From: an uncultured Lachnospiraceae bacterium
Lineage (GTDB): Bacteria; Bacillota; Clostridia; Lachnospirales; Lachnospiraceae
NCBI GenBank assembly: GCA_946566685.1
Contig: CAMNXA010000006.1
Location: 14,699-78,698, forward strand
Direction: 5' to 3'
DNA: 64,000 nucleotides
How positions within the stretch are numbered: position 1 is the stretch's first letter; each line of letters begins with the position of its first letter. The notes under the pieces are model-generated. The model was not told where the DNA came from. It was given only the letters and a program-made list of their open reading frames with translations, and did not search any database. The position numbers and the translations under genes are program-made. Positions 38,232-54,787 of the stretch are shown here, one piece after another.

Positions 38232-38441
38232 TCAGCACTGCTGCTCTTCCGCCAGCCCATAAATCTGGTACAGAGATAGTATATTCTGGTACATCAGCTT
38301 CCGAGACATCAACTGCTGATAGGTTACCGTCTTTACTTTCCCTTCTGCTTTCATCTTATCCATGGAAGACAAAATCCCGGCATACTCTTCCTGCACTGCG
38401 GCAAGCATCTTTTCAAACGCTTCCAAACGCTTTTCATCCAT
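38232..38441 (-). CDS. small hypothetical helical protein (69 aa)
   Basis: A clean ORF 29 nt downstream of the 5'-nucleotidase gene. I recognise no motif. Confidence 0.4.
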   Translation of the reverse strand: MDEKRLEAFEKMLAAVQEEYAGILSSMDKMKAEGKVKTVTYQQLMSRKLMYQNILSLYQIYGLAEEQQC

Positions 38442-38470
38442 ACACAGCTTCTCCCTTTCCGGCTCTGCGT

Positions 38471-40150
38471 CTATTTTACCACAATTCGCCCCTGCGGCAC
38501 AGCATATTCTTTTCCGATTGTTCCACCCAGATGATTGGCTATGTAATCGATCAAAACCTGATAATCCATAGTTCCCTCATCCAAGATCAGAGGATTGTCC
38601 ATAAACATCCGCTGGCCGTCTCCGCCCCGTTTGAGCAGGTAATTCTGGGAAGCAAGCGTATAAATCCTGTCAGGGTCAATGGGCGCATAACTCCCATCTT
38701 CCTGAAGTACCCTGACATCCTTTACCCGGCGCACACTCCCGCAGGATACAAACATTTCATTCTCATCCATAGCGACCGAGGACTCCACGGAAGTATCCAC
38801 CGTAAAGGTAATCCCCGACACCTGGAGGAATCCGCCGTTCTCTCCCACGGCATTTGTGCCATCGCTAAACTCCGCCTGTACTGCCCGGTTCGCCATCTCC
38901 AAAGCATCCAGTATCTCCTGTCCGCTTACCTGGGCAACGCAAAGGGTATTTCCGTAAGGATGTACGGCAAGCAGATCCCCATAGGTAATATCGCCCGCCG
39001 GCAGATTGGCCCGGATACCGCCGCCATTTACCATGGCAATATCCGCCCCGGAGACAATACGGCAGGCATCGGCACAGAAATCTCCCAGGTTAGTCTCCCG
39101 GCTTCTCACTATACGGATACCATCCTTAGAGGCAATGGACAAGTCTGCTTCACTGTGTCCTGCAACCCGCTTCATATCTTCCTCGAAACTGCCCAAAACC
39201 TCATCGATATAACATTCTGTTTCCTCGTCCTTCTCCGGATATGTAATCAGTCCCGTGGTAATGGTTCCGCCTGGGGTTATCGTAAGCTGTCCAATATAGT
39301 TTAATTCCGTTCCCGTTGAAGACAGTAATACCTCACCGCCGCTTTTATTCTTTACAACCTGACAGGGAATCACACTGTGGGAATGGCCGTCCAGCACAGC
39401 ATGCACCCCTTCCGTATGCTCGATCAGATTAATAGAACGAAACGGTGCAGAATCCTCATCCACACCCAAATGTGTCAGGAGAATGACATACTCTACCCCT
39501 TTCTCCAGACATTCATCCACCGTGGCCTGCACCTGTGTATAAAATTCTTCCCCATTATCCCCGACATAAAAATCATAGACAAATTCCCCCGCCTCATCCA
39601 TAAAATAGGTCGGCGTGGAACTGGTAATGTTCTCCGGGGTGCAGACGCCGACAAAGGCGACCTCCACATCTCCGTATCTTTCTATACGATAGGGCGAAAC
39701 TTCTTTCAGGGCGCTTTCCCCTGTACCGGTATATCGTACATTACAACACAGATACGCTGCCTCTGCTTCCTGTATAAGCCGGGAAAGCCGTTCCATGCCA
39801 TAGTCAAATTCATGATTGCCGGGCACAGCCAGATCATAGCCGATGCGATTCATCATCTGCACAGGATACTCGCCTTCTGACAAAAGGCCGATTACATCCC
39901 CCTGTATGGCATCCCCACAATCCACCAGGGTCACATAGGGTGTTTTCTCTTCCATATATTTCTGATAAGCCGCCAATCCCGCATAACCGATGTTGTCCTC
40001 CACGGCACAGTGGACGTCATTGGTATAGAGAATGACAATATCCTCCTGCTCCCGTCTGGCCGTCCCACAGCTGCATAACAATAAAAGAACTAATATTATT
40101 ACAAGCAAAACATTGATAGTACGTCTTCTGTATTTCATCTCTATCATCAT
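38471..40150 (-). CDS. secreted bifunctional metallophosphatase / 5'-nucleotidase (UshA-like) lipoprotein
   Basis: It has YTNDVHC, DCGDAIQG, VPGNHEFDYG and the lipobox LLLCSCG. The start is one of three ATGs between 40138 and 40150. Confidence 0.88.
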   Translation of the reverse strand: MMIEMKYRRRTINVLLVIILVLLLLCSCGTARREQEDIVILYTNDVHCAVEDNIGYAGLAAYQKYMEEKTPYVTLVDCGDAIQGDVIGLLSEGEYPVQMMNRIGYDLAVPGNHEFDYGMERLSRLIQEAEAAYLCCNVRYTGTGESALKEVSPYRIERYGDVEVAFVGVCTPENITSSTPTYFMDEAGEFVYDFYVGDNGEEFYTQVQATVDECLEKGVEYVILLTHLGVDEDSAPFRSINLIEHTEGVHAVLDGHSHSVIPCQVVKNKSGGEVLLSSTGTELNYIGQLTITPGGTITTGLITYPEKDEETECYIDEVLGSFEEDMKRVAGHSEADLSIASKDGIRIVRSRETNLGDFCADACRIVSGADIAMVNGGGIRANLPAGDITYGDLLAVHPYGNTLCVAQVSGQEILDALEMANRAVQAEFSDGTNAVGENGGFLQVSGITFTVDTSVESSVAMDENEMFVSCGSVRRVKDVRVLQEDGSYAPIDPDRIYTLASQNYLLKRGGDGQRMFMDNPLILDEGTMDYQVLIDYIANHLGGTIGKEYAVPQGRIVVK

Positions 40151-40173
40151 CCTATTGTGCTAACACCGTCTTC

Positions 40174-40578
40174 TTATTGCAGAAAACGAAACCTGCCCTC
40201 GGTCTCTTCCACCAGCACCGACTCCAAATCAAGTTTCTCTCGGATTTCTTCCGCCAGGCTCTCCACCTCGTCTTTTTCCACAAAAATCATCTGATAAATG
40301 AGAGCCTCATTCTCATGTACGGTTCCCGCCTCCACATACGCGCCATTAGCCGTATATTCGGTATACCCAAGTCCTCTGTCCGTGATCAGCTGCCGAATCT
40401 TCTCTCCCGCCTCCTGCGTTGAAAGAACCTGTGCACCCGTCTGTGCATTATTTAAGCCACAGTAGATTTTAAAATATTTCTCCTGCGTTTCGCCGTCCGC
40501 ATTGGTTTTGCCGCAGGCAGTGAGTGCCATCATTGCCACTGCCAAAATCATCACTGTCTTCTTTAATCTACTTTTCAT
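40174..40578 (-). CDS. small lipoprotein, unknown function
   Basis: MKSRLKKTVMILAVAMMALTACGK is a signal peptide with a lipobox. GGAGG lies upstream of the ATG at 40578. Confidence 0.6.
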   Translation of the reverse strand: MKSRLKKTVMILAVAMMALTACGKTNADGETQEKYFKIYCGLNNAQTGAQVLSTQEAGEKIRQLITDRGLGYTEYTANGAYVEAGTVHENEALIYQMIFVEKDEVESLAEEIREKLDLESVLVEETEGRFRFLQ

Positions 40579-40600
40579 TGCATCCTCCATCTTAATCTGC

Positions 40601-41287
40601 TCAATCATCCGTCATTGTAAAATACAAATACCCGTCTCCATAATAGGGCAGTTCATCAATCGTATACAGTCTGGCCGCATAATCGATCGCACTGTTCTTT
40701 TTCATCTGCTGCAAAGAATCCTTTCCCAGTTGAAACATGACACCCTCATAGGTAACGGGACAAGTCACTGCAATCGCCTTATAGACGGTACTGCCCTCAT
40801 TTCCCGACATAAACTCCACTGATATATCATAGGATTCGTCTCCGTTCTGGATTGTCACAAACCCCTCCTGGGCCGTATGTTCTCCCTCCAGCTGCTCGTT
40901 CACCGCACTGTCAAACTCAAAGCTGGTTCCCGTATATCTGTCAAAAGCACTGCACCAGAAAAGAATGCCATCACCCGTACAACCACTTGCATCAATGGCA
41001 AATTGTGCGCTCACTTTCTTAAATCCGTCTGCCACACCCTCAGTAGCCTCTGCGATGGATACCTTCACATCCGCCGTAAAGTCCCCGGTGATCTCACCGC
41101 TTGCCGAATCAAAGCCACCCATCTCCACCTGACAATCTCCCTGCGGTGTGACGGTAATTCCCTGCTTGGCACTCCATCCCTCTTCCTTTTTCTTCAAATC
41201 CTTATCATCAGTGCCGCACGCGCATAATAATACAACAGCCAGCACAACCAGCATACCCAGCTGCCACCTGTTTCTCCCTGTTATCAT
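40601..41287 (-). CDS. lipoprotein, unknown function
   Basis: ...LVVLAVVLLCACGTDD contains a lipobox. I prefer the ATG at 41287 (9 nt after AGGAG) over 41296. Confidence 0.6.
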   Translation of the reverse strand: MITGRNRWQLGMLVVLAVVLLCACGTDDKDLKKKEEGWSAKQGITVTPQGDCQVEMGGFDSASGEITGDFTADVKVSIAEATEGVADGFKKVSAQFAIDASGCTGDGILFWCSAFDRYTGTSFEFDSAVNEQLEGEHTAQEGFVTIQNGDESYDISVEFMSGNEGSTVYKAIAVTCPVTYEGVMFQLGKDSLQQMKKNSAIDYAARLYTIDELPYYGDGYLYFTMTDD

Positions 41288-41310
41288 CACACTCATCTCC
41301 TGCTATTTCC

Positions 41311-41718
41311 TCAGATACTCTTCCTGATCGTTAAAATATTCTGTCCGTCCTTATATTCATAAGCAATATCATCCATGGTCTTTTTGACCATATAGATGCC
41401 AAGGCCGCCGATTTCCCGCTCCTCCGCAGAAAGCGTAATGTCCGGGTCATCTTCTGTGAGTGGATCATAAGGAACGCCGTTATCAATAAAAGTAATCACC
41501 ACAGACAAAGGATCATTCAACACCTCCACCCGCACCGTAGCCGGACCCACTTCCGGATTATAGGCATAGTGGGCGATATTTCCAAATAACTCGTCTATGG
41601 CAATATCAATCTGCATCTGCGCCTTCATCGGGCAGTCCATCGCTTCCAGTTGCTCATTCACAAAAGCAGTGACCTCCGCTATATTTTCAACTATCGCATC
41701 GACTGTCAGTTCCTTCAT
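41311..41718 (-). CDS. RsbW/SpoIIAB-type anti-sigma factor serine kinase (HATPase_c_2)
   Basis: The N-box is DELFGNIAHYA. It also has ITFIDNGVPYDPL and the G-box EIGGLGIYMVKK. The length is 135 aa. Confidence 0.8.
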   Translation of the reverse strand: MKELTVDAIVENIAEVTAFVNEQLEAMDCPMKAQMQIDIAIDELFGNIAHYAYNPEVGPATVRVEVLNDPLSVVITFIDNGVPYDPLTEDDPDITLSAEEREIGGLGIYMVKKTMDDIAYEYKDGQNILTIRKSI

Positions 41719-41741
41719 CCCGTTTTCTCCTTTACCCCTGC

Positions 41742-42239
41742 TTACACTTCCAGCAGTCTGCGTAATTTCTTAAGTGCACTGCCATGGATCAACTTAGCAT
41801 AACTATAGGAAATATGCATGATATCCGCAGTCACTTTCAAGGTATGTCCGCTATAATAATGCAGAATAATCAAATCCCTCTCCCGCTTCTCAATCCGTAA
41901 AAGGGCATCCGCCAGACGTTCCAACATCTCTTCAGAAAGAACCTGTTCTTCAATTCCCTTATCCTCCGCAGTCAGTTCCGTCAACTCGCTAAACTGCTTC
42001 GAAGTACGATAATAATCTATCACCACATTGCGCGTGATCGTATAAATCCAGGTCGAGACGGACGCTTTGCCTGCATCAAAAGAAGACAGGGCCGCAAACG
42101 CTTTCACAAACACGCCGGAAACCAGATCCTCCACCATGTGAGGATCTGGTACTTTCCCGGAAATATAACGGGTCACTTTTTCCTTATAGTCCAGATAAAT
42201 CTGTTCCTGTAATTTTTGATTCTCAACTGTTTCAGACAT
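41742..42239 (-). CDS. ECF-like sigma-70 family RNA polymerase sigma factor
   Basis: The region 2 pattern is ...DLVSGVFVKAFAAL..FD.....STWIYTITRNVVIDYYR. Region 4 is RERDLIILHYYSGHTLKVTADIMHISYSYAKLIHGSALKKLR. I take the ATG at 42239; the Arg-rich upstream extension is discarded. Confidence 0.85.
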   Translation of the reverse strand: MSETVENQKLQEQIYLDYKEKVTRYISGKVPDPHMVEDLVSGVFVKAFAALSSFDAGKASVSTWIYTITRNVVIDYYRTSKQFSELTELTAEDKGIEEQVLSEEMLERLADALLRIEKRERDLIILHYYSGHTLKVTADIMHISYSYAKLIHGSALKKLRRLLEV

Positions 42240-42429
42240 GGGGATGATCCCCCGTGGCCGCACCCGGCCTGGGCGAAGCCGGCACTTCCCCTGCCGCATT
42301 GACAAATTCCAGGTCATCATCCGACAGCGGCACACAGTATCCGGATGCCGCCTGCCCGATGACCGCTGCAAGCCGCTTATTGTTCGCAAACTGTTGATAA
42401 TCAAACAACCCTCTCAATACCCTGTCCAT
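42232..42429 (-). CDS. small ORF (65 aa) with a double-glycine-leader-like motif, translationally coupled to the sigma factor gene
   Basis: MDRVLRGLFDYQQFANNKRLAAVIGQAASGYCVPLSDDDLEFVNAAG|EVPASPRPGAATGDHPHV. An AAAGG lies 6-7 nt before the ATG. Its stop overlaps the sigma ATG in ATGTCTGA. Confidence 0.4.
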   Translation of the reverse strand: MDRVLRGLFDYQQFANNKRLAAVIGQAASGYCVPLSDDDLEFVNAAGEVPASPRPGAATGDHPHV

Positions 42430-42480: not shown

Positions 42481-42657
42481 TTATCGTCTTTTACCATTGG
42501 GTTCATCCCAGTTCCATCTTCCACCGCCAGTTACCTGATCCAGGGCATCGTCACTCAAAGCCTCTGTCTTAGGTGTGATGATAAGTCCTCCGTTTACATC
42601 CTTCAGGGCATCGTCCTTTACTCTGTTTTCCTGGTTCTGATTCATCTTGTCTGTCAT
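42481..42657 (-). CDS. 58-aa precursor-like peptide with two double-glycine motifs (peptide B; not in the ORF track)
   Basis: My own translation gives MTDKMNQNQENRVKDDALKDVNGG|LIITPKTEALSDDALDQVTGG|GRWNWDEPNGKRR. AGGAGG lies 8 nt upstream of the ATG. Confidence 0.55.
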   Translation of the reverse strand: MTDKMNQNQENRVKDDALKDVNGGLIITPKTEALSDDALDQVTGGGRWNWDEPNGKRR

Positions 42658-42820
42658 TGTCTTTTCCTCCTTTTTTCCATATCTTTATCTGATTCATCTT
42701 TTCCAGCGGAACTTATCCCGCTAACCACCATACTGTTACAAAATACTTGCTGCCTCTCCTGCATGCATTGTCTATGTACTTTGCGCTCTCATGCCACCAC
42801 TCACATCTTCCAGCGCCTCG

Positions 42821-42985
42821 TCATCTATCGGTTCTGCCCCCCCCCCCTGAAATATTCGGGGTTTTACCCTCTGTCTGCTCAATCCATGATCTGGTTTCGT
42901 TCTGTATCCTCATACCGCCGTTCACCTCATCCAGTTCTTCCTCTTCCAACAAAATACCCTGTACATTTTTTTCTTTATGATCCAT
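42821..42985 (-). CDS. 54-aa precursor-like peptide with a double-glycine leader (peptide A); apparently frame-split at a G11 tract
   Basis: MDHKEKNVQGILLEEEELDEVNGG|MRIQNETRSWIEQTEGKTPNISGGGGRTDR*. GGAGGTG lies 5 nt upstream of the ATG. It is the internal part of the 111-aa track ORF. Confidence 0.55.
   Translation of the reverse strand: MDHKEKNVQGILLEEEELDEVNGGMRIQNETRSWIEQTEGKTPNISGGGGRTDR
42837..42847 (-). repeat. G11 homopolymer inside peptide-A coding sequence
   Basis: I counted 11 consecutive C on the plus strand (42837-42847). Confidence 0.9.
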
Positions 42986-43070
42986 CTTTTCACCTCCGTT
43001 ATTGACTATACCGCTGCTTACACTTTGATACGAATCACTTCCGCCGCGGTCTAATAAAATCGTAAATTTA

Positions 43071-45284
43071 TTAAAATAATGTGGTTTTCCCCACATGCTG
43101 TACATCATCAAGCCGTTGTCTTGCCACCAACTCCGAGAAGTACCCACCCTTATCAATCAATTCGTCATAGGCGCCGTCCTCGATAATCTTCCCCTTGTCC
43201 AGCACAATGATCCTGTCGCACTGCCTGATGGTGGACAGGCGGTGGGCAATCACGATCCTGGTGCATTTTAACCTGTCAAGGGACTCCGAAACCGTCTTCT
43301 GCGTCAGGTTATCCAGGGCGGAAGTGGCCTCATCAAACATGAGAATCTTCGGTTTGGGGGCGATGGCGCGGGCAATCATCAGCCGCTGTTTTTGGCCGCC
43401 GGAAATGCCGCCTGCCCCCTCGGCAATCATGGTATGCATCCCCATGGGCATCCGCCTGATATCCTCCGCCATCCCCGCAAGTTCCGCCGCTTCCCAGGCC
43501 TCATCCAAGGTCAGCCAGGGCGCGGAGATGGTGATATTGGAATAAATATCTCCCAGAAACAGACTGCCGTTTTGCATCACCACACCAATCCGGCGGCGCA
43601 GGGACTTTAAGTCAATCGTGGTCAGGTCTTTGCCATCATAATAGACCGCGCCTTTCTGGGGCGTCTCAAATCCCAGCATCAGCCGCATCAGCGTGGACTT
43701 GCCGCATCCCGTTGCGCCCACGATGGCCACGTACTGGCCGGGACGGATTTTTAAGGAAAGATTGTCCAGAATCAGCGGCATATTTTCCTTGTAACGGAAG
43801 GACACATTGTTTAACTCTATCCCGCCGGAAAGTCTGGTAATCACCTGTTTGTTCTCGGCAATCTCCGGCACGTTTTCGAGAATCGGTCCGACCATTTCCA
43901 TCATGGGTCTAATCTGCGCAATGGTGAGCGCCACAGAGGACAGGGTCATAAAAGCCCCGGAGACCATGCCGTAAGCGGTATAAAAAGCATAGTAGTCCGC
44001 CACCGATATCTTCGTGCGGATGGCGGCATAATATATCACAAAAGTGCCCACCAGCGAAATGGCCGTGGAGATAACGCCGTTTATCTTGATCAGCATCGGC
44101 GGGTCATAGGCCAGCTTTGCCTGCTTCGCATAAAGATTGCCCCATCTGGCAAAGGCCCGCTTCTCCGCACCGGAGAGTTTGATCTTCTGTACCCCGGAAA
44201 TCATGGCATAGGACATACCGCCCTCCTTGGAAGCTAACTCCATCTGCCGCCTTACCAGTCTCATCTGCATCAGGGAAGTCAGCACCGTCACCAGGAACGT
44301 CACCCCGATCACCAGCAGAGCCGGCGTCACAAGAGCCGGCGCATATACAAATATCTGCGAGATATATAGCAGGGAAAAGAGGGACGTCAGGCCGGCGGAA
44401 AGCGCCACCGACACCAGCATCGTACACAGTTCCCCCACATACTGCATTCGGGAAGAAAGTTCCCCGGCGCTGTAATCCTTAAAAAAATCCGCCGGCAGAG
44501 ACATCACCCGGGACATCACCGCCGCCTGCACATGCACATCCAGCTTCGTTTCCATCCGGGCCATGACCAGTTGTTTTACCGCTGCAAAAAGTGCTGAACT
44601 GATGGCAACACAGACCATAAACACCAGGATGGACGATAACAGCCGCATACTGCCGGACGAAATCACCTCAGAGAACAAAATATGATTCAGCTTCGGCGCA
44701 AACATTCCCATCAGCGTGACCACGCATACCATCGCCAGAATCATGATAAAGTCCTTGACAGAGAAGGTCTGTAGCATATAGCGGATCAAATCCGAAAGAC
44801 CCAGCTTTTTCAGGGGAAACGGCTTATAGAAAGCAATCGCCTCCTCCTCGAACAACTCCTGGTTGTTATGATCAAACCTCTCTCTCTTCCCGCTTGCCGC
44901 ATCCAGATAGCTGTAACCGGAAATTCCGGCAGGGAGAAAAGCCGTGACGGCGCCATCGCTTTTACGCACCCCCAGCATCGCCCCGTCCGCATCCCGATAC
45001 CAGCCATCCGTCAATTTAACGGTTCTTCGCATAATGCCGTTGGGCCTTAGCAGAAATTCCAACTGCTCATTCATATCTTTGATACTGTCCGGTATCTCCC
45101 TGGATTTCACATGGTAGTATTTCAGAATCTCCTCCATGGCGTTTCTTGCCGTCTGCCTAGAATCGTTCAATGCCACAGATACACGGGATCCCATGACTGC
45201 ACCCGCAATGTTGACGAAGGCATCCTCAAGCATTTCGTTATCATTCTGTTTTCGTAAGCGGATCTGCTCGTCAAACCAGCCCAT
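43071..45284 (-). CDS. NHLM-type bacteriocin-system ABC transporter, ATP-binding/permease subunit without active peptidase (ABC2)
   Basis: It has a 6-TM domain, Walker A GATGCGKST, the signature ISGGQKQRLMIARA and FDEATSALD. The N-terminal ~160-aa domain has no CG... cysteine motif. GGGAGG lies 6 nt before the ATG. Confidence 0.85.
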   Translation of the reverse strand: MGWFDEQIRLRKQNDNEMLEDAFVNIAGAVMGSRVSVALNDSRQTARNAMEEILKYYHVKSREIPDSIKDMNEQLEFLLRPNGIMRRTVKLTDGWYRDADGAMLGVRKSDGAVTAFLPAGISGYSYLDAASGKRERFDHNNQELFEEEAIAFYKPFPLKKLGLSDLIRYMLQTFSVKDFIMILAMVCVVTLMGMFAPKLNHILFSEVISSGSMRLLSSILVFMVCVAISSALFAAVKQLVMARMETKLDVHVQAAVMSRVMSLPADFFKDYSAGELSSRMQYVGELCTMLVSVALSAGLTSLFSLLYISQIFVYAPALVTPALLVIGVTFLVTVLTSLMQMRLVRRQMELASKEGGMSYAMISGVQKIKLSGAEKRAFARWGNLYAKQAKLAYDPPMLIKINGVISTAISLVGTFVIYYAAIRTKISVADYYAFYTAYGMVSGAFMTLSSVALTIAQIRPMMEMVGPILENVPEIAENKQVITRLSGGIELNNVSFRYKENMPLILDNLSLKIRPGQYVAIVGATGCGKSTLMRLMLGFETPQKGAVYYDGKDLTTIDLKSLRRRIGVVMQNGSLFLGDIYSNITISAPWLTLDEAWEAAELAGMAEDIRRMPMGMHTMIAEGAGGISGGQKQRLMIARAIAPKPKILMFDEATSALDNLTQKTVSESLDRLKCTRIVIAHRLSTIRQCDRIIVLDKGKIIEDGAYDELIDKGGYFSELVARQRLDDVQHVGKTTLF

Positions 45285-45299: not shown

Positions 45300-47477
45300 C
45301 TATGCACTTGCCACCAACTCCGTATACGCCCCGCCCTTGGCATACAGTTCCTCATGTGTGCCCCGTTCTATCACTTCTCCCTGCTCCAGCACAATGATCT
45401 CATCACAGTCCCTTATCGTGGAAAGGCGGTGGGCCACCACGATGCAGGTAATGCCCCTGTCCTTGATGGCCTTGACCACCTCATATTCGGTCTTGGCATC
45501 CAGTGCCGATGTAGCCTCGTCCAGGATAATGATGGTGGGATCCTGAGCCAGCACCCTGGCAATCTCCATGCGCTGCCTCTGACCACCCGAAAGATCCTTG
45601 CCGCCCTCCGTGATCTTATAGTTATAGCCGCCGTCCCTCAGCATGATATCCTCATGCAGCCTGGCATCCCTGGCCGCCATGATCATTTCAAAGTCCTCAA
45701 TCGAACTGTCCCACATCTTGATATTGTTGGCGATGGTATCTTCAAACAGGATAATGTCCTGATCCACCACCGCCAGGGATCCTGTGAAAATGCTTCTATC
45801 AATATCTTTCATCGGTTTACCGTCAAATAAAATCTCACCACTCCAGGGTTTGTACAGTCCCGATATCAGTTTGGAGAGTGTGGATTTCCCACAGCCGGAG
45901 GCGCCCACAAAGGCAACCCGGCTTCCCGTTTTCAAAGACAGGCTGAAATCCCTGATCAAAGGTTCGGCCAGTCTGGAATAACCAAAAGTCACGTTTCTCA
46001 GTTCCACGTTGCCCGACAGTTTGCCGTATTCCATGTCCTCTCCCGCTTCCTCATCATCAAATTCCACATCCACGGGATATTCCATCACATCCTCCACCCG
46101 CTCCATCTGCGTGCGCATCTCCTGCAAGGTCTGCCCCGCCGAAATCAGTGTCTGTGCCGGCGCGCTGAAAGATAAAAGGAATCCTTGAAAAGCCATGATC
46201 ATACCCACCGTAAACTGCCCCTGCATGGTAAGGTATGCACCAATGAGCAAGACCGCTATATTCGCAAAAGAGGCTGTCATCTCCGGGATTGCACCCAGAT
46301 ATTGGTTCAGACGGACAAACTTTACCTGCTGGGTATTTACACTGGCCTGATACCCCGCCCATTTTTCAAAGTATCCGTTCTCCGCGCCGCTGGCCTTAAT
46401 GGTCTCGATCATCTCGATACCGGAGGCAGTGGCCCCCGCCAGCCTGCCCGCATCACGCATCTGCACACGGGTGATATTCACCCGCTTCCTGGAGATGATA
46501 TTGGACACGAAAAGGTTGATCACGATCGAAGATAAGCTGATAAGAGCCAGTATGACACTGTAGCGAAGCATGACAATCAAATAGAACACCATCATCACCG
46601 TATTGAGTACAAGCGGCGCCAGCGTATTCACCAACTCCTGAGCCACGGAAGCGTTCATCGTCTGCCGCTGTTGGATATCTCCTGCCATCCTCTGGGCAAA
46701 AAATTCCATCGGCATACGGAGTACTTTCCACATATAGCCCGTACTGCCCACCACGGCCAGCCTGCCGTTAATCCGCAGGGAATAGACCGCTCGGATCCAT
46801 TCCACCACCAGCTGCAAGATTCCGATCCCGCCCAGCACAAGCAGAAACGGCGGCGCCCAGCCAGGATTGCGGCCCGTCAGCAGTCTGTCCAGAAATATCC
46901 GGGAAAAAACAGGATTGATAATCCCCAGCAGGGACGTGATCATAGTCGTCAAAACCACAAAGGCGATAGCGCTCCCCGCGCCTTTTAATCTCTTTTTCGC
47001 AAAGGAGAGCATACTCTTTTGTCTGCCGTCCGGTGCAAAGTCCTCTGCCGGCTCAAACATCAGACAGATGCCCGTAAAAGCCTCGTCAAAATCCTGCATG
47101 GTCACCGCATAGTTTCCTTTGGCAGGATCGTTTAAGTACGCTTTATTTTTCTGAAAACCGTTTAATACCACAAAGTGGTTGAAATTCCAATGGATGATGC
47201 AGGGAAAGGTTCCGTTCTGCTTTAGGTCTTCCGGCTCATAGCGGTACCCCTGGGCCTTAAGCCCATAACTTCTGGCCGCCCGCAGTACATTTTTGGCATT
47301 GGAACCGTCCCTGGATACGCCGCAGTCCGCACGCACCTGCTCCAGAGGAATCCATTTTCCATAATAGGCCAGAATCATGGTCAGTGAGGCGGCACCGCAC
47401 TCCAGCGCTTCCATCTGCATGACCACCGGCACCTTCGCCACGCCGTTTTTGACAGGCTTATTTATCGCCTTACCCAT
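45300..47477 (-). CDS. C39-peptidase-domain ABC transporter (double-glycine leader cleaving/export ATPase, ABC1)
   Basis: The C39 motifs are VVMQMEALECGAASLTMILAYYG and ...IIHWNFNHFVVL. It also has GASGCGKST, LSGGQRQRMEIARV and LDEATSALD. I prefer the ATG at 47477 (5 nt after GAGGTG) over 47498. Confidence 0.9.
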   Translation of the reverse strand: MGKAINKPVKNGVAKVPVVMQMEALECGAASLTMILAYYGKWIPLEQVRADCGVSRDGSNAKNVLRAARSYGLKAQGYRYEPEDLKQNGTFPCIIHWNFNHFVVLNGFQKNKAYLNDPAKGNYAVTMQDFDEAFTGICLMFEPAEDFAPDGRQKSMLSFAKKRLKGAGSAIAFVVLTTMITSLLGIINPVFSRIFLDRLLTGRNPGWAPPFLLVLGGIGILQLVVEWIRAVYSLRINGRLAVVGSTGYMWKVLRMPMEFFAQRMAGDIQQRQTMNASVAQELVNTLAPLVLNTVMMVFYLIVMLRYSVILALISLSSIVINLFVSNIISRKRVNITRVQMRDAGRLAGATASGIEMIETIKASGAENGYFEKWAGYQASVNTQQVKFVRLNQYLGAIPEMTASFANIAVLLIGAYLTMQGQFTVGMIMAFQGFLLSFSAPAQTLISAGQTLQEMRTQMERVEDVMEYPVDVEFDDEEAGEDMEYGKLSGNVELRNVTFGYSRLAEPLIRDFSLSLKTGSRVAFVGASGCGKSTLSKLISGLYKPWSGEILFDGKPMKDIDRSIFTGSLAVVDQDIILFEDTIANNIKMWDSSIEDFEMIMAARDARLHEDIMLRDGGYNYKITEGGKDLSGGQRQRMEIARVLAQDPTIIILDEATSALDAKTEYEVVKAIKDRGITCIVVAHRLSTIRDCDEIIVLEQGEVIERGTHEELYAKGGAYTELVASA

Positions 47478-47499
47478 TTCTTCACCTCGTTTTGTCATA

Positions 47500-47597: not shown

Positions 47598-48101
47598 CTA
47601 ATCATTTTCCGCAGTAGTGTTTAACAAAAACGACATCGGAGAAATACTCTCTGTTATCATGGACACCTCATAGACACCGTCAGGAAGCGTGGTCTTTGCT
47701 CTCACTTCATACACCCACTCCCCGGCCTGAAACCCGCCCAGATACAACAGATAGGCATCCGCACCCTGTGGGATTGCCACAGGCGCTGTCCCGATATCCA
47801 TAATCTGAAAGGACTGTTCTGCCACCGTAAGTTCCATCCCCGCTCCCACAGCCTTCCTCACCGCCTCGATATCGCTTTCCCTGACATAACAGGTAAACAC
47901 GCCGTCCTCACATGTCCCCGCGCTCTCAAGCCGAGTATCCAGATGCCCGAAAATGCCCCAGACGCACACGCCCACAAGCAGAATGATCACCGCCAGAAGC
48001 ACCATCCATACGCCCAGGCTTGATACCCGCACATAGTCATCCAGCTGCTCCGGTGAGGAAATCCGCTGGATACTGGATTTGCGAAATAATTGTCCGTTCA
48101 T
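47598..48101 (-). CDS. short HlyD-like secretion adaptor of NHLM-type bacteriocin systems
   Basis: The N-terminus LFRKSSIQRISSPEQLDDYVRVSS plus one TM helix is the hallmark start of this adaptor family. At 167 aa it is much shorter than canonical HlyD proteins. Confidence 0.7.
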   Translation of the reverse strand: MNGQLFRKSSIQRISSPEQLDDYVRVSSLGVWMVLLAVIILLVGVCVWGIFGHLDTRLESAGTCEDGVFTCYVRESDIEAVRKAVGAGMELTVAEQSFQIMDIGTAPVAIPQGADAYLLYLGGFQAGEWVYEVRAKTTLPDGVYEVSMITESISPMSFLLNTTAEND

Positions 48102-48123
48102 CTGTCTTCCTCCCCCATCCGCC

Positions 48124-49503
48124 TTACTTCTCCGCCACGCCTACCTGGAACTTATATTTCTTCTGAAAACGGTCATGGTTAAAGGCATTGACCACATCCC
48201 AGCCGTTACAGTGCCCGGAACACATAAAGCTCTCACATCTGGACAACATGTAGAGAGCATAAAAATAGTTGACGGTGGTATCCTCCAGCGCCGCTTCATA
48301 CGCTTCCCCGCTCTTTTCCTGCTTCTCCAGGTCACTGATCAGCGCCACATCCTTAAAATCGCTGACCCGATGTCTTTCCTGCGCAATGACGCGTATCTTA
48401 CCCTGAAACTCAGCCTGCATCACATCCAGAATATCCTGATCCTCGGTAGCCAGGAAAATGGCATCATATCGATCCTCCTCCATCCACTCATGTATCATGG
48501 GCAGCATTTCGTCCACCGTAGCCATCTTGCGGGCGCCGGTCATCCTGGAGACCACATAGTCCGTTCCCCGCATGAGGATTCCCAGCATCCGTCTGTTGCC
48601 GATGACTGCCTCCTCATACTCTTTCAATTCCTGAATAAAACTGTCGCTTAAGATACTGTCATCAAAATCCGCATTGCATTTCGCCACGAAATGAGTCGGT
48701 ACCAGCGGCACCGTGTTGGTCACATAGATGGTATTGGTCTCATCGGAATCCTCACAGGCCACATCCAGGTTAAAATACCGCTCCAGCATGTCATCCTTGT
48801 ACCGGGTGCTGTCCCGTTTCAACACTGTTTTCCAGCCTAATTGCTTAAAGGCATTATTAATCCTTGTATAATGTGCCAGGATCGCACCGATTCCTGCCAC
48901 CATACCCAATCCCACTTCCACATACTTCACATCAGACAGCGGGATATCCATCAGCCACTGCCAGATAAAGACATTGTTAAATAACGGGATCAGGCTGATG
49001 GAGCGAAAATCCGCACTGTTAAATCCCAGTGAAAACTGCTGCCCGCTGCGAAGGACATTCCCTTCCGCCCTGTCGGGGAGGTCTGTGGTCACATGCAGTC
49101 TCTCATGGGGTTCCACAAACCAGTAAATCCGTTCATCAGGAATCCACACTTCTTTCTCTGTGTAATCCAGGATAATCTTCGTCAGAACCACGCTGTACTC
49201 GTTAAGATCCTCAAACACGGCGCCGTTGTACTCCTGAAATACGTCCAGATATAAAGCTTCCCGATCCGTCTCATCGTACAGGTAATACGGGGGCAGCATC
49301 CTATATCCTTTCAGCACAGCCATATTGGGCGCCTGTTCATTATTTTCCATATAAATCAGGTCATAATCCTCCCCCTTGTCGTTTCTCACATGAAATCTGT
49401 TCTCGCCCTTCAGGACTGCCCGCAGTGCGTTGTGAAATACCTGGTCATTATGCCTTAAGGTCCTGCAATTCTCATTTTTATCCGCTTCTACAATCTGTAA
49501 CAT
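48124..49503 (-). CDS. hypothetical 459-aa protein; the C-terminal half has fucosyltransferase-superfamily-like motifs (tentative)
   Basis: A clean ORF with GGGAGG upstream. The motifs LGILMRGTDY (HxRxxD-like), AIFLATEDQD and DTTVNYFYALYMLSRCESFMCSGHCNG occur in the order seen in GT11/GT23/POFUT-like enzymes. The N-terminal ~280 aa are unassigned. Confidence 0.6.
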   Translation of the reverse strand: MLQIVEADKNENCRTLRHNDQVFHNALRAVLKGENRFHVRNDKGEDYDLIYMENNEQAPNMAVLKGYRMLPPYYLYDETDREALYLDVFQEYNGAVFEDLNEYSVVLTKIILDYTEKEVWIPDERIYWFVEPHERLHVTTDLPDRAEGNVLRSGQQFSLGFNSADFRSISLIPLFNNVFIWQWLMDIPLSDVKYVEVGLGMVAGIGAILAHYTRINNAFKQLGWKTVLKRDSTRYKDDMLERYFNLDVACEDSDETNTIYVTNTVPLVPTHFVAKCNADFDDSILSDSFIQELKEYEEAVIGNRRMLGILMRGTDYVVSRMTGARKMATVDEMLPMIHEWMEEDRYDAIFLATEDQDILDVMQAEFQGKIRVIAQERHRVSDFKDVALISDLEKQEKSGEAYEAALEDTTVNYFYALYMLSRCESFMCSGHCNGWDVVNAFNHDRFQKKYKFQVGVAEK

Positions 49504-49580: not shown

Positions 49581-52500
49581 TTACAGCCAGACTACCAACT
49601 GATTTTTCCCTTCTTCATATGTATAACTGCTGTCCACAAGCACAGACTTCACCAACCGGATAGAGAGTTCCTCCCCCTCCTCCAGCGGATGATACTGCCT
49701 GCCGCCCCATACAAACCGCATGGCCAGCCTGCCGTCCGCCTCATAATATTCCGTGGTAATCTCCAGAGCGTCCTCCCCATCCCGGTTCGGCACAATATTG
49801 AGCGCACAGATTTCCTCGAATGCCCGGCGCAGATTCTCTACCTGTCTGCGGCTCAAAAGATGCTTTTCGCCAAACTGCTGCAGGGACTCGCTCATGGCAA
49901 TAAAGTCATAGTCCGGCGAAGTAATCCGGAACTGCAATACTTTTAGCCGTTTAACAAAAGCCCTGGTTTTCTCTTTCACGGGATTATCAAAAATCTCTTC
50001 CGGCGTCCCTTCCTCATATATCTCCCCCTGATCCATATAGAAAATCCGGGTACTCACATCCCTGGCAAACTTCATCTCATGGGTGACGATCATCATCGTG
50101 AGTCCTTTGGCCGCAAGCTGCCTGATGACCGCCAGTACCTCGCCCACCATGGTGGGATCCAGAGCGCTGGTGGGCTCATCAAACAGCACGATCTCCGGCC
50201 GCATGGCCAGGGTCCTGGCAATGGCCACACGCTGTTTTTGGCCGCCGGACAGCTCATCCGGATAGGAGAGCGCCCGTTCTGCCATACCTACGGTCTTTAG
50301 CAGATACATGCCATAGGCAAAGGCCTCCTGTTTCATCTCACCTTTTAACTGCGTGGGCGCCAGCATCACATTTTCAATCACAGTCAAATGCGGGAACAGA
50401 TTAAAACTCTGAAACACCATTCCCATCCGCTTGCGAAGGCTGCACAAATCCACATCCTTCTTCCCGGTGTCTTCCCCAAACACGGTAATCTTCCCGCCTG
50501 TAGGCGTTTCCAGACGATTCAGGCAGCGCAGGAAGGTAGATTTACCGGTTCCGGACGGCCCGATGATGGTAATGACCTCCCCGCTGTGAACCACCGTATT
50601 CACATCCTTTAACGGCGACACATCGGCATACTCCTTATGTAAATGCTCCACATGGATCAGATCCCTGGCCTCTCCTGACAATGCCTGTTCCTTCGTCTCT
50701 TCATAACAGGCGCTGGTATCTACGCCCTGGGGATATCTGCGCGGCCCGCGCTTCACATCCAGCTTCCACTCCACCCTGCCGATGGCAAAGGCCGCCACCG
50801 CCGAGATGGCAAAGTAAATCGCCGCCGTAGCAATCAGCGGGAAAAACGCCTCGTAAGTACGACTTCTGATAATGTCCCCCGCCTTGGTCAGATCCTCAAT
50901 GGAAATATAACCCACGATGGAGGTCAGCTTTAACATGGAGACAAATTCTCCCCGGTAAATGGGCAGCACCTGCCGCACCGCCTGGGGCATGATAATCTGC
51001 ATGAAGGTTTTACCCCTGCCAAATCCCAGGGCCTGGGCCGCCTCCCACTGGCCGGCATCTATGGTATGGATACCAGTATTTAAGATTCCCGCCACCGCCA
51101 CTGCAAAGATCAGGGAAAAGGAAATGATACCCACCGTCACCGGCGCAATCTTCACCGAAGCAAACACCACAAAATAAATGATCATCAACACTACAAGACT
51201 GGGGATACCCTCCATCAGATGACAGAGTCCCTTTGCCAGCATGGCAAGGGGTTTATTACGGCATCTTAACCATAGGCACAGCAAAAATCCCAGAACTGTT
51301 CCGATCATACCCGCCAGAACGGCAATCTCAAGTGTCACCAGCAGGCCGCTCCAGATCAGCTTCCAGCGGTCTTCCCGGATAAAGGTTTTTTCAAAGCTGT
51401 CCGCCAGTCCATCAAAAAAGCCGGCCTCTTCCACACAGTCTCCCTCATCCGCCACCGCCATGACGGTTTCCACATAAGTATAGGGGATGGAAAAAGCCAT
51501 CACTTCCCGTTTCTCCGGTGTTTCAAACAGGTTGGACATGATATAGTCCACCTTGCCGGACACACAGGCCGGCGTGATCCCGTCCCAGTCGTAAGTCTCC
51601 ACCGCCAGTTCTGCATTGCACCAGCCGGCAAAACGTCTCATCAATTCCAGGTCATACCCTGTCAGTTCTGTCCCTTCATAGAAAGAATAAGGTTCCACCA
51701 GTCCTGTGGTTCCCACAGTGATGGTATAGTCCGGTTCCTCGGCCTCTGCGACCTCCGGCATGGTATAATCGTGTTCTACCAGCCAGCGTCTGCGCATATC
51801 TTCCAGTGTCCCATTTTCTGACATTTCTGTCAGAAATGTATTGATCTTATCCTCCGCATCCGGAATCCCCGTCACCGGGCTGATGGCCACTGCCACATTG
51901 CCCGGCTCTCCGACAGTGGCATTCCCATAGACACGCAGTCCCTCATTACCGCTGGCAAGATAGCTTTCAAGAGTCGTCTTATCTACGGCAAAGGCATCCG
52001 CTTTCCGGCTTGTCACCGCCAAAAACCCACCTATGGCATCGTCCACAATAATAAACTTCGCCCGCGGATAGACTGCCTTTGCGGCAGTTTCTGTGGTCGT
52101 ACCGGTCTCTACGGCAATCACGGCAGACTCTCTGTTCAGATCAAAAGTCTCCGCTCCGTCCACATTTTGCGTCCGGCACAGAAAGACCGTGCCGCCCGAA
52201 TAATAGGATTCACAAAAATCCACACTCTCGGCACGTTCTTGCGTAACAATGATACAGCAGGCCGCAATATCCGCTTTATTCTGCTGGATAAAAGACACCA
52301 GGGAGGCAAACTTTGTCTCGATCAGTTCCACTCCCATATCCAGTCTGTCCGCGATCATCAGTACCAGTTCTGTCTCAAGTCCTGCCGGCTTTCCATCATT
52401 GCCAATATAGAGCATGGGCATATTGGTGCCGTCAAAGGCAAAGCGCAGCACGCCGCCGGGACGCTCGGAAAGATCATACAAAGACCAGTCAATCTTCATG

Positions 52501-52994
52501 ATCTCCTCGTCTCCGCTGAGCCATTTCCCGGCCAAGGCCTCAATGGTTCCATCCGCTTTCAACTCCCGGATGACTGCTGACACCTCATCCGTCAAAGGCC
52601 CATCCTTTTTCAGGATCATGCTGTAATCATCCGCAGAAATAATCTCCGGAAATACCGCAAACTCCCCCGGTCTCTGGGCTGATGCCATCTGCGCCACAGG
52701 GCCGTCCAAGGCCACCGCCTCCACATCGCCCTTTTTCAGGGCCTCCAATTGCGTAGTCAGATCGTCATAATGGTTGTAGCTTAAATCATCAAATTTTTCA
52801 TCCAATACCTGGTCATACAAAGATCCCGTCAGCGTGGCAATGGTAGTGCCCTCAAAGTCTTTCAGCGTCCGGTAGACTGCATCTGTCTGTTCCTTATTGC
52901 CGCATCCCGTTACTTCGGCCAGCGCCGTACATATTATTAAAATGAAAAGTGCCGCCTTATATCTCGCCATTTGTGCTTTCATTCCTTTTATCAT
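49581..52994 (-). CDS. single-chain amino-acid-type ABC transporter: lipoprotein signal + substrate-binding domains + permease + ATPase + RsbW-like tail
   Basis: The lipobox is VTGCGN. SBP_bac_3-like segments come next, then the permease (…[33 protein letters not shown]…). The ATPase has [24 protein letters not shown] and [12 protein letters not shown] 118-aa C-terminal extension follows. An ATGA overlap links it to the upstream STAS gene. Confidence 0.85.
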
Positions 52995-53287
52995 TCCACC
53001 GTCAGGATATCCGAAAATCCTGTGACTTCAAACACTTCCATCACTGTCTCACAGACATTCCGGATGACCATACTGCCCTGTTTGTTCATGATCTTCTGTG
53101 CCGAGAGCAGGACTCGTAACCCCGCAGATGAGACATACTCAAGATTCGCAAAATCAAGAGCCAGTTCCGTCATGCCGTCAAGGGATTCCTTGAGCGCCTT
53201 TTCCAGTTCCGGGGCCGTCATGGTGTCCAGCCTGCCTTCCACTCCCACTGTCAATGTTGTCCCTGTTACATTTTTGTTGATTGTCAT
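52991..53287 (-). CDS. STAS-domain anti-sigma-factor antagonist (SpoIIAA/RsbV-like)
   Basis: ...[22 protein letters not shown]...[20 protein letters not shown]... contains the conserved phosphorylatable Ser context. The ATG at 53287 follows AAAGGAG. Confidence 0.88.
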
Positions 53288-53371
53288 AATGCTTCTCCTT
53301 TTCATTGTTATTGTGAAATTACTTCTGATGCTTTCACAGTCCGCACTTTCCTTCCGAAAACCATCACCGCG

Positions 53372-54787
53372 TCACTTTCTGACTTTGACCGCCATCATGG
53401 TAATATCATCGAACTGCATGGCATTTCCCACAAAGTCATCGATATCCGCCCTGACCTCCTGAAGCAGTTCCTGGGAACTGGCATCCTTCTTTCTGTTCAG
53501 AGCCTGTAGCATCCTGTCCGTACCGTAAAGCCGGTCGTCCTCATCGGAAGCCTCCGCCACCCCATCGGTATACACAAAGAGCATATCTCCCTTATGGAGT
53601 TCTATCACATACTCCTGATAGGAAACATCTTCCATACCCGCCATCACAAAGCCATGTTTATCTTTCAACAGTTCAAAAGAGCCATCCGCCCGTTTCACCG
53701 CCGGATATTCATGTCCGGCATTGACCGCCGTCAGTTTTCCCGTGGCGATCTCATAGACGGCCAGCCAGACAGTGACAAACATCTCGGCTTCGTTATTTTC
53801 CAGAAGCTGGTTATTTACGGTCTCCATCGCCTCCTTGGGTGACAGTCCCGACTGCACGGCATTTTTTAATAAAGTCTTGGTAATCATCATAAACAGGGCC
53901 GCCGGCACTCCCTTACCGGAAACGTCCGCTATCACAAGCGCCAGATGGTTCTCATCCACCAGAAAGAAATCATAGAAATCGCCGCCCACTTCCTTGGCCG
54001 GATGCATGGATGCATAAATATCAAACTCCTCATATTCCGGAAATGCCGGAAAGACACAGGGAAGCATGGAAGCCTGAATCTGCGTGGCCACATGGAGTTC
54101 CGCACCGATCCGCTCCCGCTCCCGGTTATCCAGTTCCTGCTGCTTAAGCAGACCATGCGTCCGTCTGGAGAGGGTAACGCCAATCAGATAGACCACCACC
54201 AGGATCACGGCTCGCGGGATATAATAAAAATTAAACACCCGCAGCAAGAGATTATCCCCGGCCGCTGTGGCCTCTCTGATAAAAGCCGCCCGGAATGCAG
54301 CATCTCCCGGCAGATCCACACAGCGCATCATATTGGCATCCCATACCCCGAAATACAGCCCGACATACACCGAACAGAGCATGCAAAGCAATACCCCTGC
54401 CAGCGTGATATGGGCAAACTTCGGAGAATAATAGTGACAGGAAAGGATAATCGGACAGGCCCATGCCATCACCAGCTGAATCGTCAGTGTGGAAGACAGA
54501 ATCCCCAGCCCCAGAAGAAAACACCCCATAATGAGATATTTCAATAACCACTCCTGCCCTTTCCACACCCGTACCAGTAATGACGGCAGCAAAAATAATG
54601 CCACACCGACAGGCATAGCAGTGTTCATTAAACCCTTGTCCACTATAAAAAATCCCAGTATATTCAAGATCCACATGAGCGCCGCAATGCCTGCCGCGAT
54701 CAAAAGACAGAAGGCCGTATAACGGTTCGCCTTCTTTTCATTCAACTTAAAAATATCCAAATGCATTGTATCCATCAGCTTCAACAA
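53372..54787 (-). CDS. membrane-bound PP2C-family serine phosphatase (SpoIIE/RsbU-like)
   Basis: It has a multi-TM N-terminal half. The C-terminus is ...EVGGDFYDFF...VIADVSGKGVPAALFMM...YTDGV...DDITMMAV. The start is TTG 54787 or ATG 54775. Confidence 0.88.
   Translation of the reverse strand: MLKLMDTMHLDIFKLNEKKANRYTAFCLLIAAGIAALMWILNILGFFIVDKGLMNTAMPVGVALFLLPSLLVRVWKGQEWLLKYLIMGCFLLGLGILSSTLTIQLVMAWACPIILSCHYYSPKFAHITLAGVLLCMLCSVYVGLYFGVWDANMMRCVDLPGDAAFRAAFIREATAAGDNLLLRVFNFYYIPRAVILVVVYLIGVTLSRRTHGLLKQQELDNRERERIGAELHVATQIQASMLPCVFPAFPEYEEFDIYASMHPAKEVGGDFYDFFLVDENHLALVIADVSGKGVPAALFMMITKTLLKNAVQSGLSPKEAMETVNNQLLENNEAEMFVTVWLAVYEIATGKLTAVNAGHEYPAVKRADGSFELLKDKHGFVMAGMEDVSYQEYVIELHKGDMLFVYTDGVAEASDEDDRLYGTDRMLQALNRKKDASSQELLQEVRADIDDFVGNAMQFDDITMMAVKVRK

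Follow-up and report, generated by a model that had tools for sequence, protein, structure and literature searches.

The window analysed here is a stretch of 64,000 nucleotides (nt) of contig CAMNXA010000006.1 (positions 14,699 to 78,698; GenBank assembly GCA_946566685.1) from an uncultured Lachnospiraceae bacterium of gut or rumen, and the subject of this work is an array of 16 genes, which runs on the minus strand from position 54787 down to position 38232 and combines a peptide export locus with the genes of a partner switch. In this order, the array codes for a membrane phosphatase of the PP2C type, a STAS protein, a fused ATP-binding cassette (ABC) importer, a protein of 459 amino acids (aa), a truncated HlyD-like protein, two ABC exporter subunits, three small proteins (peptide A, peptide B and orf65), a sigma factor resembling those of the extracytoplasmic function (ECF) type, an RsbW-type kinase, two lipoproteins, a 5'-nucleotidase and a 69-aa protein. 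A first-pass annotation had proposed this order together with the domain identities, and both hold: every open reading frame (ORF) was found on the minus strand at its place, the domains were recovered by Pfam and NCBIfam family scans, and reading of the sequence confirmed an ATGA overlap at 52991-52994, an 8-nt overlap at 42232-42239 and gaps of 14-99 nt at the remaining junctions. The two lipoprotein ORFs apparently share a second 8-nt overlap (40601-40608). Since the GC skew is negative throughout the window, most of its genes are expected on the same strand, and the co-directionality of the 16 genes is thus weak evidence. Related loci compared with the window are numbered L001-L097; the family of the 459-aa protein and the C39 exporter alone served as anchors for their main sets.

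The PP2C/SpoIIE-type serine phosphatase (53372..54787) matches PF07228 over residues 279-470 (E 3e-52; 177.9 bits against a cutoff of 25). Its hydrophobic N-terminal region of 230 aa, for which no family match was found, is presumed to be a membrane-embedded sensor or input domain. The phosphatase is 90% identical to its counterpart in L090 and 23-25% identical to those in L027, L029 and L034. The STAS gene (52991..53305), whose stop codon lies in the ATGA overlap with the start of the importer gene, encodes a single-domain protein of the anti-sigma-factor antagonist type (TIGR00377, 71.1 bits against a cutoff of 53.45; PF01740) and carries in the motif VSSAGL a candidate for the phosphorylatable serine, which aligns by eye with Ser58 of SpoIIAA. 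STAS identity is 87% in L090 and 65-67% in L092 and L093, where the gene lies directly 5' of the exporter; a weak match to the MlaB model was also obtained (E 2.7e-4). The RsbW-type anti-sigma serine kinase (41311..41718) matches PF13581 (HATPase_c_2; E 7e-20, 71.8 bits against a cutoff of 27.4) and retains, as judged by eye, the N-box and GGLG motifs. With the equivalog models for RsbW and SpoIIAB the cutoffs are not reached, so the protein is a member of the family and not an orthologue; homologues with 66-68% identity are located between the PP2C and STAS genes in L027, L029 and L034. The sigma factor (41742..42239; 165 aa) consists of regions 2 and 4 only (PF04542, PF04545; TIGR02937, 89.5 bits against a cutoff of 42.9). 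Region 3, as present in group 3 factors of the SigB/SigF type, was not found, and the best named models are ECF families. No class I anti-sigma domain model matched either neighbour of the sigma factor, orf65 or the RsbW-type kinase. It had been argued that PP2C, STAS, RsbW and sigma genes are normally contiguous, which overstates the case: in Bacillus, spoIIE is unlinked to spoIIAA-AB-sigF, and in C. difficile, rsbZ is unlinked to rsbV-W-sigB.

The fused importer (49581..52994; 1137 aa) is of the polar-amino-acid type and comprises, according to its Pfam and NCBIfam matches, a lipoprotein signal, two SBP_bac_3 domains, a BPD_transp_1 permease, a GlnQ/TcyN-like ABC_tran ATPase and a C-terminal tail, an architecture that is also found in L004, L007 and L090. 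The tail (residues 1019-1137; 49584..49940) is an RsbW/SpoIIAB-like domain, which lacks the ATP-lid/GGLG segment. BLASTP aligned it to the RsbW-type kinase of the window with an E-value of 3e-6 and a 13-residue gap at the GGLG position, and comparison of the tail profile with the RsbW-kinase profile by hhalign gave a probability of 97.9% (E 3.5e-13, 116 columns), again with the ATP-lid segment deleted. The AlphaFold (AF2) model of the tail has a pLDDT of 87, and the top 20 PDB matches obtained with Foldseek are all RsbW, SpoIIAB, UsfX or SiaB chains (best E 1e-5; TM-score 0.49-0.76). The tail is probably a kinase-dead pseudokinase domain used for docking. In an exhaustive phmmer search of 1.84 billion representative proteins, 153 relatives of the tail were recovered, always at the C-terminus of ABC importer ATPases, and the ten relatives that were scanned, all of them polar-amino-acid ABC importers, cover every fusion state from ATPase-tail to SBPx2-permease-ATPase-tail; a word-index search with the tail yielded 19 matches, which are mostly fragmentary. 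Furthermore, MatE-like transporters in sister loci end in related RsbW-like tails: a profile of five MatE tails matches both the RsbW-type kinase (E 3e-10) and the ABC tail (E 4e-10) of the window. BLASTP of the L034 MatE tail against RsbW gave no match, and single hidden Markov models were weak. No description of RsbW-like or GHKL domains on transporters was found in the literature searched. Because the STAS gene overlaps the start of a transporter gene that ends in an RsbW-like domain, the upstream half of what had been taken for a split module is not missing an RsbW-type partner.

The export genes belong to the NHLP class. The HlyD-like membrane protein (47598..48101; 167 aa) is truncated, with residues 13-62 covering positions 1-50 of the 421 positions of TIGR03794 (39.4 bits against a cutoff of 156.2), and the truncated gene is kept 5' of the C39 ABC gene in L004, L007, L034 and L090-L095. 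It is followed by the C39-peptidase ABC exporter (NHLP ABC1; 45300..47498; TIGR03796, 961.6 bits against 853.3; PF03412, E 3e-35), for which 120 homologues are found among the matches listed, all at least 80% identical, and by the second ABC subunit without peptidase (NHLP ABC2; 43071..45284; TIGR03797, 745.7 bits against 709.4). The precursor of peptide A (42772..42984) has two GG-type leader motifs and the C-terminal core MRAQST. Its reading frame is shifted at a run of 11 G (42837-42847), whereas L096, a near-identical contig from another sample, has 10 G at 2832-2841 and an intact frame of 70 aa; this difference reflects an error of assembly or else slipped-strand switching of peptide A on and off. 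Orthologues of peptide A are present in L008 and L090. Peptide B (42481..42657) likewise has two tandem GG-type motifs, DDALKDVNGG followed by LIITPKTEAL and SDDALDQVTGG followed by GRWNWDEPNGKRR, and is 69-70% identical to its counterparts in L008 and L090. Its leader passes the GG-leader model TIGR01847 (17.8 bits against a cutoff of 15.7); peptide A and orf65 are similar by eye only, and none of the three matches an NHLP or Nif11 leader model.

The third small ORF, orf65 (42232..42429), gave no family match in the domain scans; it shares the 8 nt mentioned above with the sigma gene and consists of a conserved 48-aa N-terminus, which ends in LSDDDLEFVNAAGE, followed by a variable tail. Five homologues share the 48-aa N-terminus, which ends in LSDD[DE]LxxV[NT]AAGE, and differ in their tails. 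An overlap of the gene with the sigma start is kept as well, with 8 nt in L090-L095 and about as many in L008. This motif aligns in register with the peptide B leader LSDDALDQVTGG, but has AA or AAG in place of GG. Thus, the description of the three small ORFs as GG-motif peptides fits peptides A and B, not orf65, and peptide A is frameshifted in this assembly. For orf65, a role as third precursor and one as a small regulator of the sigma factor that is seen by the exporter both come into question. As a side observation, the second core of peptide B (GRWNWDE...) weakly resembles precursors of XyeA-type cyclophanes, which are peptides made by the ribosome and modified after translation (RiPPs), in a match that scores below the cutoff (E 0.0013). 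Relatives of the locus carry radical SAM/SPASM enzymes and Cys-rich precursors with GG leaders (L029, 2887-4986; L004, 1504-2916), and the array of the window is without a maturase.

Directly after the stop codon of ABC2 and 44 nt 5' of the peptide A start lies the promoter-like motif AGACCGCGGCGGAAGTGATTCGTA (43029..43052), in which ACC and CGTA are separated by 15 nt, which is the ECF promoter geometry known from the SigW/SigM/SigX consensus. The motif is unique in the window, with 0 occurrences expected by chance. Its pattern recurs at the same position in L008 and L090, and a related TTACCCC...TTCGTAT follows ABC2 in L092 and L093, though the downstream gene differs; the position is thereby kept across five loci. 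A conserved ECF-type motif before the first peptide gene fits the earlier suggestion that the sigma factor drives peptide production. The array is closed by an intrinsic terminator (38165..38203) with a 10-bp stem and a U-tract (-15.1 kcal/mol, z = -2.96). The first-pass annotation had regarded this terminator as the only convincing one, and convincing it is; however, a weaker terminator-like hairpin with a T-run is also present at the end of ABC2 (43079..43096; -8 kcal/mol, z = -1.4). Counts of consensus promoters and terminators inside the array are not above chance, and an Rfam scan of 37500-55500 gave no match. Two transcription units are probable, one from PP2C to ABC2 and one from the peptides to the 5'-nucleotidase.

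The layout of the array is conserved in loci that were recovered with the exporter as anchor. In the following gene orders, GT stands for the 459-aa protein, HlyDs for the truncated HlyD-like protein and orf61 and orf62 for homologues of orf65. L090 and L091, whose layout was read from at least 24 contigs and whose exporter is 91% identical, have the order histidine kinase / 633-aa protein / response regulator / PP2C-STAS-ABC(tail)-HlyDs-C39ABC-ABC2-peptideA-peptideB-orf65-sigma-RsbW-nucleotidase, which is the array of the window minus GT and lipoproteins in the same chromosomal setting. L092 and L093 (exporter 82% identical, sigma factor 51-53%) have the order STAS-HlyDs-C39ABC-ABC2-Lactamase_B-100-139-aa proteins-radical SAM-orf62-sigma-STAS', with several of the 100-139-aa proteins, some of which show weak Nif11 leader matches. 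In L094 and L095 (exporter 81%), the order is STAS-HlyDs-C39ABC-ABC2-small ORFs-radical SAM-orf61-sigma-MatE(RsbW-like tail)-GH3-PP2C, and a radical SAM enzyme is thus encoded in all four of these loci. The RsbW gene lies directly 3' of the sigma gene in the window, in L090/L091 and in L086, which keeps only sigma-RsbW-nucleotidase; in L094/L095, the sigma gene is followed by the MatE transporter with the RsbW-like tail, and in L092 by a second STAS gene. A STAS gene at the head of the exporter genes and an orf65-like gene, a sigma gene and an RsbW-type or STAS gene after the cargo constitute the conserved design, which has two variable slots, one between ABC and HlyDs and one between sigma and nucleotidase. 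The parts of the array therefore belong together, as had been proposed, and their homologues are not confined to unrelated contexts. The idea that the peptide locus was inserted into a once contiguous module is not supported, since the split layout is itself conserved in L090/L091. A metagenome scan with the sigma alignment returned one locus only, because its patterns were taken from the lineage-specific N-terminus.

Among close relatives with a GT of 88-96% identity, the locus is a mosaic. L001-L003, L009 and L010 have the order ABC-GT-lipoprotein-nucleotidase, L011 has PP2C-GT-lipoproteins-nucleotidase, L008 has PP2C-(28-aa ABC remnant)-GT-exporter-peptides-orf65-sigma-lipoprotein-nucleotidase, and L007 has PP2C-SDF-PNP-STAS-ABC-GT-GH3-MatE-PP2C'-HlyDs-C39ABC. 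The 459-aa gene and the lipoprotein genes occupy the variable slots; L090 is without them, and L007 has an expanded slot. The loci L001-L003 and L009-L011 suggested that a block of exporter, peptides and sigma factor had been inserted into an ABC-GT-lipoprotein-nucleotidase backbone; this was rejected, as L090-L095 show the layout without GT, and differential loss at the two variable slots explains the data better. L008 has lost the STAS gene, the transporter and the RsbW gene together and keeps exporter, peptides and sigma factor, which suggests that the three lost genes form one functional set. The 28-aa remnant of L008 (9736-9819), located between PP2C and GT, derives from the binding domain of the fused ABC transporter, and the C39 ABC gene of this locus (11973-14432) matches in two pieces and may be disrupted; both are signs of recent decay of locus parts. 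In L007, the start of the truncated HlyD gene shares 4 nt (16560-16563) with the second membrane PP2C gene, and this phosphatase may be translationally coupled to the exporter.

The 459-aa protein (48124..49503), a cytoplasmic protein and the occupant of the first variable slot, has no Pfam or NCBIfam family match. Its AF2 model (pLDDT 90) points to a fucosyltransferase-like protein with a GT-B glycosyltransferase fold: Foldseek matched it to FUT8, POFUT1/2 and NodZ (E 1e-6, probability 1.0), with TM-scores of only 0.25-0.53. The invariant sequences LGxLxRGxD and FLATED of the family resemble by eye the fucosyltransferase motifs I and II, and R312, G313 and D315 within LGILIRGTDY are invariant. 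None of about 400 homologues has a Pfam domain, and "hypothetical protein" is the name of the few that were named in their sources; these named homologues belong to assemblies of Lachnospiraceae, Selenomonadaceae and other Bacillota, while the genome loci stem largely from rumen metagenome-assembled genomes. Of 86 loci anchored on this family, 18 have a STAS gene on the strand of GT at a distance of at most 300 nt, and 35 have one within 5 kb; counted over the loci, STAS was found in 36, PP2C in 21 and RsbW in 9. The contiguous order PP2C-RsbW-STAS-GT(-STAS) occurs in L027, L029 and L034, where a single-sequence phmmer search detected no sigma gene within 10 kb, and the same type of search found a sigma factor related to that of the window only in the window and in L008. 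The neighbourhoods identify the GT family as a client of partner switches in its own right, and the presence of switch genes beside GT in loci where no sigma gene was found indicates that the switch has partners other than sigma factors. Distant family members adjoin STAS-APH fusions, A-T-C enzymes resembling non-ribosomal peptide synthetases (NRPS) and MatE transporters (L087-L089), and most members have no exporter nearby. In loci of the Selenomonadales type, STAS-APH (kinase-fold) fusions of about 390-420 aa flank GT, with up to four per locus (L087, 9383-10639; L088, 4380-5552, 6987-8159 and 11240-12427; L089, 7500-8756), and look like a different flavour of STAS signalling. A role of GT as a glycocin-type peptide glycosyltransferase was rejected as the main reading: it is not a SunS-type GT2 enzyme, and L090 lacks it despite having the same peptides and exporter.

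We propose, with a probability of about 0.5, that the sigma factor autoregulates the peptide operon under the control of RsbW, STAS and the membrane PP2C phosphatase, and that the transporter tails provide additional docking sites for STAS. The first unit (54787 to 43071) would supply the membrane phosphatase, the STAS protein, the importer with its RsbW-like pseudokinase tail, the glycosyltransferase as a passenger and the NHLP-class two-ABC exporter with its C39 peptidase, and the second unit, starting from the motif at 43052-43029, would supply the GG-leader peptides, orf65, the ECF-like sigma factor, RsbW, the lipoproteins and the 5'-nucleotidase. Transcription of the second unit by the sigma factor would include its own gene and thereby create positive feedback, while RsbW would hold the sigma factor and phosphorylate STAS. 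The phosphatase would dephosphorylate STAS when it receives a cue from the membrane or from outside the cell, which may be the exported peptides, and unphosphorylated STAS would then capture RsbW, so that the sigma factor is set free. The kinase-dead tails of the transporters would also dock STAS, and transporter state and sigma activity could thus affect each other.

Several points weigh against this proposal. Domain identities, the homology of the tails, the conserved co-occurrence of the genes and the conserved promoter-like motif are observed, whereas we infer all protein-protein contacts, the direction of control, the cue and the two-unit transcripts, and the role of the promoter motif was identified from position and geometry alone. 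Two-domain ECF sigma factors are usually paired with anti-sigma factors of the anti-sigma domain (ASD) type, and control by an RsbW-type kinase departs from the textbook case; moreover, the normal ligands of SBP_bac_3 domains are amino acids and not peptides. Loci with the importer tail, such as L001-L003, L009 and L010, have no STAS gene within 10 kb. The RsbW homologues with 66-68% identity lie in the PP2C-RsbW-STAS-GT clusters mentioned above, for which the phmmer search found no sigma gene, and the kinase therefore need not be an anti-sigma factor. One of these loci, L029, has an exporter, a radical SAM enzyme and GG peptides, and L008 keeps sigma factor and peptides without STAS or RsbW. 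These observations on the PP2C-RsbW-STAS-GT clusters and on L008, together with the frequent association of GT with STAS, PP2C and RsbW in loci in which a related sigma factor is confined to the window and L008, and the STAS-APH fusions, NRPS-like enzymes and MatE transporters around GT in L087-L089, would be expected if two independent systems shared one locus. In that case, the switch would control transporters and GT post-translationally without a sigma output, for which precedents exist (PMC7367683; bioRxiv 10.64898/2026.04.08.717354), and the sigma factor would drive the peptides under other control, perhaps by orf65. We consider this clearly less probable than sigma control by the switch, as the window, L090/L091 and L086 all have RsbW directly behind the sigma gene, this place is taken in L094/L095 by an RsbW-like tail and in L092 by a second STAS gene, and STAS heads the exporter block in every exporter-anchored lineage sampled.

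A further explanation assigns the control of the sigma factor to orf65 itself, which would be an anti-sigma or pro-sigma factor that is cleaved or exported by the C39 exporter in a manner resembling FlgM and sigma-28, so that the activity of the sigma factor would indicate a competent exporter, leaving RsbW, STAS and PP2C to modulate the transporters only. The overlap of orf65 with the sigma start in the window, L090-L095 and L008 and the conserved N-terminus, with its leader-like motif in register with peptide B and its variable tail, agree with such a role; however, a conserved leader with a variable core fits an ordinary third precursor equally well, the motif reads AAG and not GG, orf65 has no family match, and L086 keeps sigma-RsbW without orf65. 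This explanation is unlikely. More improbable still is an ordinary class II bacteriocin locus, in which the peptides would be antimicrobial, the lipoproteins would confer immunity and the regulators would be incidental neighbours. Immunity proteins of the lipoprotein type are known from lantibiotic systems, the exporter belongs fully to the NHLP bacteriocin export family and peptide B passes the GG-leader model, but the predicted cores (MRAQST, GRWNWDEPNGKRR and LIITPKTEAL) differ from pore-forming class II peptides in being very short and hydrophilic, and look more like signals than pore formers. Moreover, the lipoproteins persist without peptides and exporter in L001, L009 and L011 and are absent from L090, which has both, and the regulators are conserved with the exporter across lineages. 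A last idea, which we regard as less likely than not, is that the transporters are hubs of the switch, with kinase-dead RsbW-like tails at the cytoplasmic ends of the amino-acid importer and of MatE exporters that bind STAS or the sigma factor depending on the transport state, and with orf65 as a leader-bearing regulator recognised by the C39 exporter. If this were true, the sigma factor would read out both import and export, a checkpoint resembling FlgM or MalK/MalT built from partner-switch parts, and peptide signalling in gut and rumen Clostridia would be subject to this checkpoint.

Partner switching is mostly known for stress and sporulation sigma factors, whereas here it occurs within a peptide secretion locus, and the anti-sigma fold is found on two classes of transporters. 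The array shares with the RsbU/RsbV/RsbW-SigB and SpoIIE/SpoIIAA/SpoIIAB-SigF systems of Bacillus the PP2C phosphatase, the single-domain STAS protein with its serine, a GHKL kinase beside the sigma factor and the tight translational coupling. It differs from them in that the sigma factor is ECF-like with two domains and not of group 3, the kinase gene follows the sigma gene, STAS and kinase genes are 11 kb apart and bracket a peptide export operon, and an ABC importer carries, as a fusion, a second RsbW-like domain that is kinase-dead. With the NHLP/Nif11 export cassette (TIGR03794/03796/03797), reportedly described by Haft et al. in 2010, it has in common two ABC subunits above the equivalog cutoffs and cargo with GG-type leaders, and sister loci share Nif11-like precursors and radical SAM maturases. 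In contrast to that cassette, only the N-terminal membrane segment of HlyD is left, the cargo is without leaders of the NHLP or Nif11 type, the window array encodes no maturase, and STAS, sigma and RsbW genes are built in. Short peptides are processed by C39 ABC exporters in the ComC/ComAB and BlpC/BlpAB systems; unlike in these pheromone systems, no two-component receptor is encoded inside the array, which is flanked by an OmpR-type pair, and sister loci have Agr-like LytTR pairs. MibX/MibW of the microbisporicin cluster exemplify feed-forward expression of a RiPP cluster by an alternative (ECF) sigma factor, and differ from the array, whose putative anti-sigma factor is of the RsbW type and not a membrane ASD protein.

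Regulation of transporters and enzymes by STAS proteins or accessory domains also has precedents. In MalK-MalT, MetN and ModC, an extra domain after the ATPase couples the transport state to regulation, and MalK sequesters a transcription activator; the tail of the importer differs from these regulatory domains in its GHKL/RsbW fold. MlaB is a STAS protein whose gene accompanies those of an ABC transporter; it controls this transporter post-translationally by binding to the ATPase core MlaF, without being phospho-regulated (PMC7367683). In the array, docking is presumed to take place at a dedicated RsbW-like tail, and kinase and phosphatase are present. In HenR-All4160 and SypE-SypA, PP2C, kinase and STAS proteins directly control a glycosyltransferase or a polysaccharide pathway (bioRxiv 10.64898/2026.04.08.717354; PMC10120452), which parallels the association of the 459-aa GT family with STAS, PP2C and RsbW and recalls in particular the STAS-glycosyltransferase system described for Anabaena (bioRxiv 10.64898/2026.04.08.717354). 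STAS there forms a fusion with a Bac_transf enzyme, whereas here it is a separate protein, GT has a fucosyltransferase-like GT-B fold and a sigma factor is also present. Each principle thus has a precedent; the architecture is conserved, widespread and unannotated, and in agreement with the first-pass annotation, no system of this composition was found in the literature searched. The kinase-dead RsbW-like ends of the transporters point to an undescribed link between transport and gene control. If the proposed contacts are real, transport would be connected with transcription directly and post-translationally, and clusters for RiPPs or peptide signals would have a regulator of a new type. Such clusters are common in gut and rumen Clostridia, with one exporter homologue being indexed in 231 blocks of a public collection, and the comparison provides a first handle on three unannotated families, namely the 459-aa GT-B protein, the RsbW-like transporter tail and orf65.

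Among the remaining genes of the array, the 231-aa lipoprotein (40601..41296), recognised by eye from its signal peptide and Cys residue, occupies the second variable slot and is present in L001, L008, L009 and L011 and absent from L090; the 144-aa lipoprotein (40174..40608) in the same slot is present in L011. The lipoprotein 5'-nucleotidase (38471..40150), a UshA-like phosphoesterase (PF02872 and PF00149), is the constant 3' member of the array and the last gene after sigma/RsbW in every close relative (L008, 18954-20615; L086, 9005-10675; L090, 16228-17931), even where exporter and peptides have been lost. The 69-aa ORF (38232..38441) has no family match in Pfam or NCBIfam and was called as a gene in L097. 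On its other side, the array is adjoined by a divergent gene for an OmpR-type regulator (54923-55654), followed by a 607-aa protein (55659-57482) without a Pfam or NCBIfam family, which is kept beside the response regulator in L090 (633 aa) and L007, and by a 669-aa ORF (57544-59553), which would be the counterpart of the HisKA-type kinase located beyond the OmpR-type regulator in L090. The exporter-anchored sister loci are flanked by pairs of an Agr/Com-like LytTR regulator and a HATPase_c_5 kinase (L092, 6963-9030; L094, 4579-6607), and a GGDEF protein is encoded in the flank of L094; a peptide-sensing two-component layer may lie on top of the switch. Outside the array, positions 20001-24000 of the window have a G+C content of 0.35-0.37, compared with about 0.47 elsewhere, and may have been acquired horizontally.

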